Source: Candidatus Thorarchaeota archaeon (GTDB lineage: Archaea > Asgardarchaeota > Thorarchaeia > Thorarchaeales > Thorarchaeaceae). Taken from it: a stretch of 52,946 nucleotides of DNA. Made by a program: the position numbers and the translations under genes. The DNA lies in the NCBI GenBank assembly GCA_003345545.1, contig PRDH01000016.1, forward strand, positions 1 through 52,946. The letters are read 5' to 3'. The notes beneath the pieces were generated by a model. That model saw only the letters and a program-made list of their open reading frames with translations. It made no database searches and was not told where the DNA came from. This document shows, piece after piece, positions 1 through 3,879 of this stretch (position 1 is its first letter; each line of letters opens with the position of its first letter).

Positions 1-35
1 AAGACTCACGAGTTCAAGTCTCGTCCTCAGCGCCA
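1..35 (+). tRNA. 3' part of a tRNA (probably tRNA-Ser), truncated by the window edge
   Basis: T-arm ACGAG-TTCAAGT-CTCGT, acceptor 3' strand CCTCAGC, discriminator G, CCA. The anticodon is outside the window. Confidence 0.8.
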
Positions 36-69
36 TTTATTCTCTATTGATCTTCCTTAGTGGCACCAG

Positions 70-120
70 AGGATGACAGAAGAATACAAAATGAGAAGAC
101 GAGAGGCAGCCTTCTGCCTC
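70..120 (-). terminator. Hairpin plus pyrimidine tract after the peptide pair
   Basis: GAGGCAG-AAGG-CTGCCTC 7-bp stem (103-120) overlapping the TGA, followed on the minus strand by TCGTCTTCTCATTTTGTATTCTTCT. Confidence 0.6.
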
Positions 121-208
121 AGCGCCTGTAGATGTAAGCATGAATAAGAGCATCGGTCGAGATGATTCTGCCAGAGGACTTTCTCTGGGTTGTCTTTGCG
201 AGTGCCAT
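119..208 (-). CDS. 29-aa small peptide MALAKTTQRKSSGRIISTDALIHAYIYRR
   Basis: ATG..TGA; SD GGAGGT about 8 nt upstream; paralogous to 215-319. Confidence 0.8.
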   Translation of the reverse strand: MALAKTTQRKSSGRIISTDALIHAYIYRR

Positions 209-214
209 GATACT

Positions 215-319
215 TTACCTCCGATACTGGTAGGCGTAGGTGATTGCCTCGGTCGAGTAGATTCGACCGATCTTGTTCTTCAGCGCAGATGTGTTCCGGG
301 TGTTAGTTGTTAGAGCCAT
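215..319 (-). CDS. 34-aa small peptide MALTTNTRNTSALKNKIGRIYSTEAITYAYQYRR
   Basis: ATG..TAA; TATATATA box about 33 nt upstream; paralogous to 119-208. Confidence 0.8.
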   Translation of the reverse strand: MALTTNTRNTSALKNKIGRIYSTEAITYAYQYRR

Positions 320-351
320 AATAGTTCACAAGAAATACTGTGTAGAGTTAG

Positions 352-359
352 TATATATA
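352..359 (-). promoter_or_regulatory. TATA box of the peptide operon
   Basis: TATATATA at a spacing typical of a leaderless or short-leader archaeal transcript. Confidence 0.55.
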
Positions 360-446
360 GCGAAGCCACTTGCGAGGGACACAGGATGAAGTCACAAGAC
401 GTGACTAGTCAGAGGGGGTCGTGAGGCAAATCAGAGTCATTCCTAG

Positions 447-866
447 TCACTGTACATGCAAGCGTGTCCTGCAATGTGGACAGAGATAGACCTCTCTTTC
501 GACTGGAACTGCGTTTCCGATGTCGAAGTCCATTCCACAATTGTCGCAGTGCAACATACCACTTAGAGAGTCGCCCTCGACAGGAAGTGCATGTTTCCTC
601 ATTGATGCTAGTATCGTATCGTCCTCTGAGATGTTGGTTGGGGCAATTGAACGACCCTGAGCCCATCTGAATGTGGCATAGAGCAAGAATATGACAATTG
701 GAATGTACATGAAGGTGTAGAGGAAGATCAGGTCAAGTGGTGTACTGACAATGACACCATAGATTCCGAGGACACCAAGTACGAGAACAACTGCGAAGAT
801 GAGCCATCTTCCTGTGTTTTGATGTCCATCTTGGGGATAGGGGTCATACGAGTCGTCATTCATCAT
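447..866 (-). CDS. Membrane protein with two TM helices and a C-terminal Zn ribbon
   Basis: Two hydrophobic segments; CDNC...CPHC. Confidence 0.7.
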   Translation of the reverse strand: MMNDDSYDPYPQDGHQNTGRWLIFAVVLVLGVLGIYGVIVSTPLDLIFLYTFMYIPIVIFLLYATFRWAQGRSIAPTNISEDDTILASMRKHALPVEGDSLSGMLHCDNCGMDFDIGNAVPVEREVYLCPHCRTRLHVQ

Positions 867-951
867 AGTAAAGAGACTCTACTGGTGAGTGACATGTAAA
901 GCCTTCCATATTCTCTTATTTGACTAGTGTAGTACGTTACTCGATACTTCA

Positions 952-2469
952 TCACATACTTCGCTTACGATATGCTGTAGCAAGTGCTAGAACTACAAAT
1001 CCAATCGTTCCACCGACTACTAGACTCAATTGTATAAGGGGTATTGCATCGCCAGAGGAGGTTTGGATACTTATGATGAAGCTACTATGGTAACCGGGAT
1101 CACAAGGGCATCCCTCTACGGAATATCCTGCGAGATATACCTGTCCGCCTTCGCCTACTGCAATGGCAATGGTTGTTTCATGGTACGCACTTCCATAGAG
1201 ATTAGAGAAGACCACACCGCCAGCTGTGTTCATGCGAACAATAAAACAATCATCTACTCCGGAGTATGGGTTGGTTGGATTTTGGATGAAGTCATCAGAA
1301 GCAGTTCTGCCTGCAATATAGATGTAATCATCAGAATCAATTGAGAAGGCTCCAGCGCTATCAAATTCAGAGCCGCCCATCTCCTTTGTATATTCTAAGT
1401 CTTCGAGGTCGTCATCAAGTCTGTATACTGCAAACGAGCTAGCAGTATGGAAGTTATCTAGAAGATAGACATAGTATTGAGAGTCAACAACTATCGACAT
1501 ACTCGGGAAGAAACCACGAGTTTTGAACTCACCAGAATCGAGGAGAGTGCCATTACCTGATATCTTTAGGACAAAACAATGCCCACCATAGTCAATACCT
1601 GGATAGTAGTATTCGTCGGTAGGACAAATATCCGTAGCACCAGCGACATAGATAGTACCACTATCTGTGTAGAAGAGATCTGACCCCGAATCAGTATATT
1701 GAGCACCATAGAACGAGGCATAGACTACCTCTGTACCAGTCGGATTCATCTTCAGAACATAACAATCAGTATCACCACTATATGTATCATCGAATGCGTT
1801 TACAATCGGGACCTCAGAGGTTCTTGTGCTACCAGCCAGATACGCATAGCCTTGTTCGTCAACTGCGAGTGCTTGAAAGTCAGCACCATTTGGTTTGTCT
1901 ATGAATTCAGGCCCGAAGAAGGTCGAATAGACCAGTGTCTGCCCATCAGGAGCAAACTTGGTCAGAAAGTACTGCGATGATTGATTAAAGTAATCACTAT
2001 ATGGATTGACTAATGGAAAATCCTCCGAGTAAGTAGAACCCAGAACATAGATACAGCCCAAGCTATCAACACAGATTGAACTAGCATAATCAGCACTATT
2101 TCCTCCCAAGAATGAAGAATACAGAATAGACCCATCAGTTGTATTCATCTTCATCACGAAGCAGTCCTGAGTGCCGCCAAGAGTGTTGTCAATACCGTCT
2201 ACGACAGGAAATGAGGAGTAACTTGTTGATCCTGTCACATAGAGGAAACCCTGAGAGTCAATACAAATATCCCACAATGATCCGATAGTCGAGCTATTGA
2301 GAATTGGAGTGCAATCAATGAATGATGCAAGTTGAGCAGTATCATCCTCTATTTGTTGGGCGCTCTCTAGAGATATTGTGGGAGTTGTAGAGATTGTTAG
2401 GAATGACGCAAAAAGAAGTAGTAATAAGAGAGAGAATCCGGGTCTAACTGAACTACCACGATTCAACAC
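952..2469 (-). CDS. SBBP (beta-propeller) repeat cell-surface protein
   Basis: Signal peptide; repeated D-x-x-G-x-x-Y-(V/I)-x-G-x-T-x-S-x-x-F-P units; C-terminal TM helix plus basic tail. Confidence 0.85.
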   Translation of the reverse strand: MLNRGSSVRPGFSLLLLLLFASFLTISTTPTISLESAQQIEDDTAQLASFIDCTPILNSSTIGSLWDICIDSQGFLYVTGSTSYSSFPVVDGIDNTLGGTQDCFVMKMNTTDGSILYSSFLGGNSADYASSICVDSLGCIYVLGSTYSEDFPLVNPYSDYFNQSSQYFLTKFAPDGQTLVYSTFFGPEFIDKPNGADFQALAVDEQGYAYLAGSTRTSEVPIVNAFDDTYSGDTDCYVLKMNPTGTEVVYASFYGAQYTDSGSDLFYTDSGTIYVAGATDICPTDEYYYPGIDYGGHCFVLKISGNGTLLDSGEFKTRGFFPSMSIVVDSQYYVYLLDNFHTASSFAVYRLDDDLEDLEYTKEMGGSEFDSAGAFSIDSDDYIYIAGRTASDDFIQNPTNPYSGVDDCFIVRMNTAGGVVFSNLYGSAYHETTIAIAVGEGGQVYLAGYSVEGCPCDPGYHSSFIISIQTSSGDAIPLIQLSLVVGGTIGFVVLALATAYRKRSM

Positions 2470-2527
2470 ATACCATTCCCATAGAATATAGAGTAAAGCA
2501 CGTAATCTGCTTTTCGAAAAAGGTAGT

Positions 2528-2562
2528 CAAAAGAAAGAAAGAACGCGGGCCTTGCAAGCCCG
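2528..2562 (-). terminator. tuf terminator
   Basis: GGGC-TTGCAAG-GCCC hairpin followed by TTCTTTCTTTCTTTT. Confidence 0.6.
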
Positions 2563-2583
2563 GTTCTCAATGATACATACAAT

Positions 2584-3879
2584 CTACCTTGGAGTGACCT
2601 TGGTGACAATACCAACAGCTACAGTCAGACCCATGTCACGGACAGCAAACCTACCGAGCTGCGGGAACTCCTTATAGGACTCGATGACCATCGGCTTCAA
2701 GGGTACCAACTTTGCAACCATGGACTCACCCTTCTTGACAAAGTCTGGTTTCTCCTGGATGACCTGTCCGGAGCGTTGGTCAATCTTCTGTAGAATCTCG
2801 TCAAATCTACAGGCCACCTGAGCAGTATGGGCATGGACAACAGGGGTGTAGCCAACTGTGATAGCGGTTGGATGCTGAATGACCATCACCTGACCCGTGA
2901 AGTCAATAGCGACTGTTGGTGGCTTATCAGCAGGACCTGCAACATCTCCACGACCAAGGTCCTTTCTCTCTACGCCTCTGACATTAAACCCTATATTATC
3001 ACCAGGCACAGCCTGAGAGAGTTCCTCATGGTGCATCTCAATAGTTTTTACCTCACCGGTCTTGTCCGCTGGCATGAAGGTAATCTTCATTCCTGGCTTC
3101 ATGATTCCAGTTTCAACACGACCGACTGGTACAGTGCCAACACCCTTGATTGAGTACACATCGTTGATAGGTACGCGTAGGGGCTTCTCAGTAGGCTTCG
3201 GTGGGAGTACCACTTGGTCAAGAGCCTCAAGTAGACATGGCCCTTTGTACCATGGTGTGAGTTTTGGTGTTAGTACCTTGAGGTTAGCTGCATCAAGTGC
3301 TGAGGTAGGAATGAACGGAATCTGATCGATCTTGTAGCCGATGCTCTTCAGGAATCCTCCTACTTCATCCTTGACCTCTTTATACCGCTCTTCGCTGTAC
3401 TTGACATCATCCATCTTATTGACACATACGATTAGTGATGGAACCCCGAGGGTCATAGCAAGGTATGCATGTTCCTTTGTTTGTCCTCCAGGACCAACTC
3501 CTGCCTCAAACTCGCCTTTCTTGGCGGAGACAACGAGCATTCCTACATCTGCCTGTGATGCACCCGTGATCATGTTCTTGATAAAGTCCTTGTGACCTGG
3601 AGCATCAATAATTGTGTAGTAGTACTTGTCAGTAAGGAACTTGAAGAAGGCAATGTCAATTGTAAGGCCTCGTTCTCGCTCTTCCTTGAGTCTATCAAGT
3701 GCGAAAGCCCAAGCCCAGGATGGACGACCGAGTCGCTCGGCCTCTGCCTTGTTTGCCTGGTAAGTTCGCTCATCTACCGCACCAGTCTCGTAGAGCAGTC
3801 TGCCCGTCATAGTGCTTTTACCGTGGTCTACGTGCCCTATGACGACGAGATTGAGGTGCGCTTTGTCTTTTTTGCTCAA
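2584..3879 (-). CDS. tuf: Translation elongation factor EF-1alpha
   Basis: GHVDHGKST, DAPGH, NKMD, LGRFAVRDMG. Confidence 0.98.
   Translation of the reverse strand: MSKKDKAHLNLVVIGHVDHGKSTMTGRLLYETGAVDERTYQANKAEAERLGRPSWAWAFALDRLKEERERGLTIDIAFFKFLTDKYYYTIIDAPGHKDFIKNMITGASQADVGMLVVSAKKGEFEAGVGPGGQTKEHAYLAMTLGVPSLIVCVNKMDDVKYSEERYKEVKDEVGGFLKSIGYKIDQIPFIPTSALDAANLKVLTPKLTPWYKGPCLLEALDQVVLPPKPTEKPLRVPINDVYSIKGVGTVPVGRVETGIMKPGMKITFMPADKTGEVKTIEMHHEELSQAVPGDNIGFNVRGVERKDLGRGDVAGPADKPPTVAIDFTGQVMVIQHPTAITVGYTPVVHAHTAQVACRFDEILQKIDQRSGQVIQEKPDFVKKGESMVAKLVPLKPMVIESYKEFPQLGRFAVRDMGLTVAVGIVTKVTPR

Follow-up and report, generated by a model that had tools for sequence, protein, structure and literature searches.

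What do two micro-ORFs at the edge of a Thorarchaeota contig encode, and where would their products act? The window, by which we mean the whole stretch of DNA analysed, is the complete contig C16 (52.9 kb) of a 2.69-Mb assembly. An earlier note, made from its letters, had read two ORFs near its start as possible RiPP precursors or, alternatively, as peptide regulators or signals.

The operon and its reading frames

The two tandem minus-strand ORFs that the earlier note described were found as stated, both starting M-A-L, and the TATA box, the embedded GGAGGT and the hairpin followed by a T-rich run are all present (Table 1). The last 17 residues of A and B share 11 identities, not the 10 that had been counted. 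The accompanying claim, that identical residues are written with different synonymous codons, stands for 7 of the 11 (GGT/GGC, CGA/AGA, GCA/GCT, GCC/GCT, TAT/TAC, CGG/AGG and AGG/CGC).

Table 1. Features of the operon and of the orphan radical SAM locus discussed in the text. Positions are those of the window unless a contig is named.
Feature	Position	Strand	Basis or remark
Palindromic operator (putative), AGTCAC-N3-TTGTGACTTCAT	386..406	-	21 bp, half-sites GTCAC/GTGAC
TATA box TATATATA, operon promoter	352..359	-	Sequence; fixed spacing from operator
Micro-ORF A	215..319	-	34 aa, net basic, TAA stop, family profile match E 1e-18
Shine-Dalgarno GGAGGT for B	217..222	-	Overlaps TAA stop of A; 8 nt before B ATG
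Micro-ORF B	119..208	-	29 aa, net basic, TGA stop, family profile match E 1.3e-14
Terminator-like element	80..120	-	7-bp G+C-rich hairpin 103-120, then T-rich tract 80-102
tRNA-Ser(GCU) 3′ end (T arm, acceptor stem, CCA), convergent	1..35	+	Cut by contig start
Orphan PqqD-radical SAM-SPASM gene	G000 C39:16902-18320 (L106:3900-5324)	-	Unrelated neighbours

The start of the operator lies 48 nt 5′ of the TATA box and 87 nt 5′ of the ATG of ORF A, and the block from operator to TATA is kept across the paralogous cassettes on contigs C16, C70 and C81. The ATG of ORF A follows a short leader and has no Shine-Dalgarno (SD) sequence. The SD of B is built into the end of A, from its two final Arg codons and its stop, and ORF B is in frame with ORF A, starting two codons past its stop. 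This layout, which is repeated at the C81 junction and at the junctions of relatives, implies that translation of B would be coupled to that of A.

The hairpin at the end of the operon, GAGGCAG-AAGG-CTGCCTC, begins within the stop codon of B. Its energy of −14.1 kcal/mol (z-score −1.3) is unexceptional by itself; a terminator-like hairpin is seen at the equal position in the G001 orthologue. The convergent tRNA sets the downstream limit of the operon, so that there is neither a third ORF nor a regulated gene 3′ of B. The A+B(+B) layout beside the tRNA was also found in three other genomes (the G001, G007 and G017 orthologues). A mobile element integrated at the tRNA was considered and rejected, since four genomes share the synteny of this locus and no integrase is found in it. 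The full tRNA-Ser(GCU) gene was read at the syntenic loci L062, L068 and L075. It bears one or more introns at non-canonical sites: one in the D-arm region and, in the G001 copy, a second in the anticodon loop. The gene was missed by ARAGORN and by Rfam at its gathering threshold, and Rfam gave no match in positions 1–3000 of the window.

Coding capacity was assessed on the 13-codon core of 90 family genes. Entropy at codon positions 1, 2 and 3 was 0.91, 0.57 and 1.48, and pooled pN/pS was 0.38, with a pS of 0.72 that puts synonymous sites near saturation. The remaining five frames contain stops in 73–91% of 91 genes, and the proposed frame alone stays open. The protein-level selection proposed in the earlier note is thus borne out by third-position variation, by pN/pS and by conservation of the frame. 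Judged from these comparisons, ORFs A and B are genuine genes, far beyond chance.

A lineage-restricted family of cassettes

At least three further cassettes were found in the same genome by a six-frame motif scan and an HMM. The same arrangement occurs on contigs C48 and C81, and more divergent copies are on C70 and C35. This recurrence of the family, together with the repeated layout, confirms the paralogy and the operon anatomy that had been read from a single copy. The earlier note had also proposed a homologue search with a record of copy number. With a profile built from six peptides, matches turned up in 35 of the 36 genomes sampled from this taxonomic family (1–12 per genome), every match being an open frame of about 30–45 codons; in 24 genomes of other families in the phylum the same profile gave nothing better than E 0.09. 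The family is patchy inside its taxonomic family, as two 98%-complete genomes of other genera were without a match.

Wider searches gave the same picture. Scanned with a pattern, 185,579 species genomes yielded only Thorarchaeota- or Asgard-labelled records and one false positive, a “Caldilineaceae” chance hit within a bacterial gene of 478 aa. Among 1.84 billion proteins, a profile search found 53 related clusters, all short except a 2,297-aa entry without an aligned stretch; the two clusters that were looked up were both nameless. Neither window peptide is present in a collection of 15 billion proteins, a scan of viral contigs gave no family match, Pfam and NCBIfam had no match at E up to 10, PDB had none, and literature searches returned no description of such a micro-protein family. 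By these searches the family is unannotated and lineage-restricted, being found here only in one Thorarchaeota family, and the Asgard origin that the earlier note had guessed holds.

The cassettes are self-contained units of about 0.3–0.45 kb with the canonical order operator, TATA, A, B, C, terminator hairpin. Class A peptides (33–35 aa) start M-A-L-[TA]-T-N and carry the C-terminal motif S-T-[DE]-A-[IL]-x-[YH]-A-Y-x-Y-R-R. Class B peptides (28–32 aa) start M-A-L-A-K and have the same C-terminal motif, often ending Y-R. Peptide C (34–43 aa), present in most cassettes, has a variable N-terminal part and the invariant end E-V-L-x-x-E-A-T. The window cassette is an A+B variant that lacks C and has a hairpin different from the canonical one. 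The “variable leader, conserved core” layout proposed earlier is an incomplete description, in that the N-terminal half of A is conserved across genera as well and most cassettes have the additional peptide C. Across 91 family members Cys makes up 0.1% of residues and N, T, S, K and R about 45%. The mean net charge is +5, and no signal peptide or hydrophobic segment is seen.

Only the class B peptides that precede a C gene end in [MLIT]-Y-R, which resembles the HbYX motif (hydrophobic residue, Tyr, any residue) of proteasome docking. Among the proteasomal ATPases, PAN (G000 C78:69921-70991) and the Cdc48 proteins (C46 and C24) of this genome end in M-Y-C, M-Y-G and G-Y-M. The window peptides do not have an HbYX end, as both finish Y-R-R with the Tyr third from the end.

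Junctions within the cassettes are stereotyped: an SD-like AGGT arises from the stop and the Arg codon or codons before it, and two codons separate it from the next ATG. B and C nearly always share one frame, divided by a single TAG (TAG, two codons, ATG). The stop at the B–C junction is TAG in 23 of 24 cases and that of A mostly TAA (32 of 48); long ORFs genome-wide end in TAG (44%), TGA (41%) or TAA (15%). With TAG ending more long ORFs than either other stop, its reading as pyrrolysine was judged unlikely on general grounds. A B–C fusion was also considered as a Rosetta-stone clue and rejected, because, on the contigs that were read, the 69–84-aa database proteins require TAG to be read as Gln and are thus gene-caller artefacts. 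Examples are the public calls at L088:1142-1354 and L089:235-453 on metagenome contigs, which join B and C as 70–72-aa proteins in this way.

One arm of a 6–9-bp hairpin before a T-run is formed by the E-V-L codons of C, the other by its stop codon with the bases that follow; this was read at L002:8491-8536 (minus strand) and at 39 other loci. The inner six base pairs of the hairpin pair in nearly all of the 40 loci, nine G-C to A-U double changes are seen, and the covariation is above that of all 500 shuffles. Within the loop, the codons for Glu, Ala and Thr are free to change at their third positions, which argues that C is constrained as a protein and as a terminator at the same time.

Shared operator and neighbouring genes

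The operator motif occurs at 4 sites in this genome and at 38 sites in 18 of 28 genomes of the genus; a reversed control pattern gave 0 sites in the same scan. Of 30 operator loci that were read, 21 lie before a class A micro-ORF, 8 before orthologues of a bactofilin-domain gene and 1 elsewhere. All 21 peptide promoters have the TATA box at +48 from the operator start and the ATG at +87. The bactofilin-domain protein has 413 aa (PF04519, E 2e-11; L055:5010-6251), and immediately upstream of its operator lies a gene for a 112-aa winged-helix protein (L055:6367-6705; HTH_45, weakly Sso10a/EarA-like) that is 67–96% identical in 36 of 40 family genomes. The module of winged-helix gene, operator and bactofilin gene is found in 15 of 16 genera. 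In most genera sampled the winged-helix gene stands before the bactofilin-like gene, and in many of them the core of the operator can be made out. From this arrangement we infer that the winged-helix protein reads the operator. The operator would be an activator-type site, because the candidate site stands 5′ of the TATA box, as the binding sites of known archaeal activators do. The putative link between peptides and bactofilin is the shared DNA motif only.

Two or three direct repeats of GTGGTCAC, spaced 11–12 nt, follow the first micro-ORF of a pump-linked operon (G000 C70:28520-28570, L056) and are also found at L058, L070, L071, L073 and L080. The reading frame over the repeats is not conserved, which points to a DNA or RNA element. 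They contain the GTCAC operator half-site and are possibly additional places at which the factor that reads the operator would bind.

At a single locus in each genome, the operator-A-B unit continues without a break into an MFS_1/MFS_3 gene (DHA3, Mef(A)/EntS-like). Family micro-ORFs lie directly 5′ of this pump gene at 11 of 11 orthologous loci from at least five genera, and the gene starts 5 nt past the micro-ORF stop. Two paralogous pumps have no family micro-ORFs upstream, and pump orthologues were not found in six genera that carry the peptides. The pump-linked A copies have the least conserved endings and have lost Y-x-Y-R-R.

Other contexts differ from cassette to cassette. C48-type loci always lie beside a divergent gene for a 255-aa HTH protein (18 loci) and usually beside a convergent methyltransferase gene (15 loci). 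The 255-aa protein (L001:3970-4737, plus strand), whose HTH is weakly PadR/HTH_20-like and which is divergent to the C48-type operon in 18 genomes, is likely the dedicated regulator of that operon. The C48-type promoter carries a different perfect palindrome, GGTTTGT-CAC-ACAAACC. C81-type loci adjoin a desulfoferrodoxin and a GNAT gene in 12–13 loci; the desulfoferrodoxin gene (L002:9136-9516, minus strand) lies upstream of the operon and is conserved in 12 loci. An AhpC/TSA peroxiredoxin gene (L057:3493-3993, minus strand) is beside the solitary C35 copy, and the presence of oxidative-stress genes next to two cassettes could be coincidence. A common theme in the methyltransferases near two loci was discarded, as these are mutually unrelated.

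Genome G035 has five very similar copies of a cassette of ∼430 bp in unrelated contexts (L028, L161, L163, L167 and L169). Similarity between them starts exactly at the operator and ends just past the terminator hairpin, and no terminal inverted repeats were seen. Taken together, the cassettes are mobile-looking yet mostly syntenic.

Possible roles of the peptides

The reading that we tentatively prefer, while giving it rather less than even chances, is that A and B are trans-acting, basic, two-helix intracellular micro-proteins that are co-induced with a regulon. We thus now favour the peptide-regulator alternative of the earlier note over its RiPP reading. AlphaFold2 on A, with 85 sequences, predicts a helix at residues 8–18 and another at 23–32 (mean pLDDT 68), with the highest confidence over the conserved C-terminus (block means 78–81). 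The S-T-[DE] stretch in this region resembles what we take to be a helix N-cap. Several operons are isolated units, each with a promoter and terminator of its own and nothing downstream, namely the window copy, its orthologues in G001, G007 and G017 and the five dispersed G035 copies, which argues for a trans-acting product rather than a cis-acting leader. Selection on the protein, conservation of both halves, the helix prediction, the basic charge without signal peptide or hydrophobic segment, the SD-in-stop junctions at fixed spacing, the shared operator with its winged-helix/bactofilin module and the lack of a modifying-enzyme neighbour all support the micro-protein reading, though they leave it somewhat short of an even bet. 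Against it, the i/i+2 spacing of the aromatic residues and the conserved orphan PqqD-rSAM-SPASM enzyme fit a RiPP route, and the pump directly after the peptides in 11 of 11 loci would suit an exported product equally.

The micro-protein model would work as follows. The TATA promoter is preceded by the palindromic site, which would serve as an upstream activator-type site read by the 112-aa winged-helix protein. A single short-leader mRNA would be made, with A translated from its 5′ end and B by way of the SD in the last codons of A. Through this coupling A and B would be produced together, as small basic micro-proteins of about 3.5–4 kDa with two predicted short helices each. The peptides would act in trans inside the cell, unmodified, docking on a larger partner or on nucleic acid by their C-terminal helix, which is invariant, capped and rich in Tyr and Arg. 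As partners, other members of the same regulon would be the most plausible, either the bactofilin-domain beta-helix protein or the DHA3 pump. A more specific version is a long shot in our estimate: the cassettes could encode micro-proteins that modulate a bactofilin-like beta-helix polymer of Asgard archaea, as cappers, nucleators or adaptors to the membrane, in analogy to MciZ on FtsZ, and that are co-switched with it by the winged-helix factor via the operator.

RiPP precursors matured in trans are the strongest competitor and, we think, an unlikely one. Here the conserved N-terminal part would be a leader bound by the PqqD-like RRE domain of the enzyme on contig C39, the [YH]-A-Y-x-Y-R-R segment would be cross-linked in a cyclophane- or triceptide-like manner, and a small processed product would leave by the DHA3 pump. 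The peptides themselves lend this some credit: their aromatics stand at i/i+2 and are followed by Arg, dispersed precursor-like paralogues are many, and the near absence of Cys is compatible with C–C cross-linking chemistry. The genome has two SPASM enzymes, one of which is the 474-aa PqqD-rSAM-SPASM protein of C39. Its gene is the only RRE-rSAM-SPASM gene of the genome, the protein is 70–99% identical within the taxonomic family and at most 45% outside it, and no small precursor-like ORF adjoins it. The MFS_3/DHA3 exporter gene that closes a peptide operon, once per genome and in at least five genera, would complete such a pathway.

The neighbourhoods tell against it. The earlier note had seen no adjacent maturase in the window, and this now extends to about 100 loci in more than 40 genomes, among whose neighbours no cluster of radical SAM, RRE, YcaO, ATP-grasp or peptidase genes appeared, in contrast to the precursors known for triceptides, streptide and PQQ, which adjoin their enzyme. 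Of the RiPP types that the note had named, those made by P450s (biarylitide, cittilin) are not supported, since a search for PF00067 that responded in control genomes gave no match in this 93%-complete genome and no P450 gene was seen beside the peptide loci, and a radical SAM route is possible only in trans. The best named match of the C39 enzyme is heme b synthase, far under the cut-off, and no named maturase scores above its cut-off; against PqqE the radical SAM protein reaches 127 bits, the cut-off being 381. Genus g5 retains the enzyme (75% identity) despite 0–1 peptide matches, the pump-linked peptides are the very ones without the Y-x-Y-R-R ending, six peptide-bearing genera yielded no pump orthologue, and peptide C is left unexplained. 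A PQQ-like Glu-x3-Tyr reading was rejected, as the [DE]-x3-[YH] of the family is mostly Asp and often His. The family thus has neither the invariant Glu-x3-Tyr of PqqA nor a radical SAM protein scoring at the PqqE level, and the core Cys of sacti-, ranthi- and lanthipeptides is almost absent.

Two minor rivals follow. Export of unmodified cationic peptides, as a leaderless bacteriocin-like weapon or signal, with C providing immunity or neutralisation and the MFS pump the way out, appears improbable. Tandem paralogous, cationic, Tyr-rich peptides of 28–35 aa without leaders, a small third gene after them, a transporter at one locus and a copy number that grows and shrinks between genomes would all be expected of it. 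The peptides are nevertheless very polar and not amphipathic membrane binders, most cassettes and several whole genera are without the pump, and a weapon in an arms race would be expected to be less conserved. The substrates of MFS carriers are small molecules, not 4-kDa peptides, and known leaderless bacteriocins use ABC systems; only the MFS pump, at one locus per genome, and no ABC genes were found.

That the micro-ORFs are cis-acting ribosome-arrest leaders, tuning downstream translation as at macrolide-pump and erm genes, we regard as about equally improbable. A length of 28–35 codons with the last 13 residues the most conserved would match the ribosomal tunnel, and the Mef(A)/EntS-like pump does start 5 nt past a micro-ORF stop at one operon. 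Against this, the terminator that closes the window operon and most others has no gene to regulate behind it, the window copy running into a hairpin, a T-run and a convergent tRNA, so that the arrangement of a cis leader is found only at the pump-linked locus. At that locus the C-termini are the least conserved and no alternative hairpins were seen between micro-ORF and pump; the N-terminus is conserved as well.

A non-coding RNA or DNA repeat with frames open by chance, which the missing annotation, the lack of matches in Pfam, NCBIfam, PDB and Rfam and the sharp, repeat-like cassette boundaries might suggest, is hardly credible given the third-position variation, the pN/pS, the stops in other frames, the conserved ATG and stop positions, the kept SD spacing and an unremarkable transcript fold energy (z = −1.9).

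No known prokaryotes are more closely related to eukaryotes than the Asgard archaea, whose small-protein repertoire is essentially unannotated; public gene calls were seen here to fuse two genes of the family through a TAG read as Gln. The family offers handles in a defined operator, a candidate regulator, two candidate partners and an orphan radical SAM protein as candidate maturase. If the micro-protein reading is true with bactofilin as the partner, it would represent a micro-protein layer controlling an archaeal cytoskeleton-like protein; if the RiPP route is true, the first peptide natural product from Thorarchaeota.

Comparison with known systems shows partial likeness in each case. Like triceptides (Xye, 3-CyFE), the family has precursor-sized peptides with repeated aromatic-x-x units near the C-terminus and one PqqD-rSAM-SPASM enzyme in the genome. 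Unlike theirs, this enzyme is never adjacent but encoded on another contig among unrelated neighbours, no peptidase is present, and the enzyme matches no peptide-maturase model above cut-off. Biarylitides and cittilins share the i/i+2 spacing of Tyr/His, but biarylitide precursors are pentapeptide genes beside a P450, and no P450 was found here. With the prochlorosins (ProcA/ProcM) the family has in common many paralogous small genes scattered over the chromosome; theirs combine a conserved leader with a hypervariable core, whereas here both halves are conserved, and Cys is almost absent, which leaves no lanthipeptide chemistry.

Leaderless bacteriocin operons (aureocin A70, garvicin KS, enterocin L50) likewise encode two to four tandem paralogous, cationic, aromatic-rich peptides of ∼30 aa, translated without leaders and followed by small accessory genes. 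Their peptides are hydrophobic or amphipathic, bacterial and ABC-exported, whereas these are polar, archaeal, stably syntenic and mostly without a transporter. The mef(A)/msr(D) leader and ErmCL resemble the one locus per genome at which a micro-ORF lies immediately 5′ of a Mef-like DHA3 pump, but most copies here have no downstream gene, and attenuator structures are lacking.

The comparison closest to the reading that we prefer is with MciZ, which caps FtsZ filaments, and with SgrT and MntS, which act on transporters. There is no sequence relationship to any of them, and the peptides described here are multi-copy and come in coupled pairs or triplets, with partners that are only candidates. 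Like MciZ, SgrT and MntS, they would be cytoplasmic proteins of less than 50 aa with no enzymatic domain, and here, as judged from motif and gene order, they appear to be co-regulated with a polymer-forming protein and a transporter.
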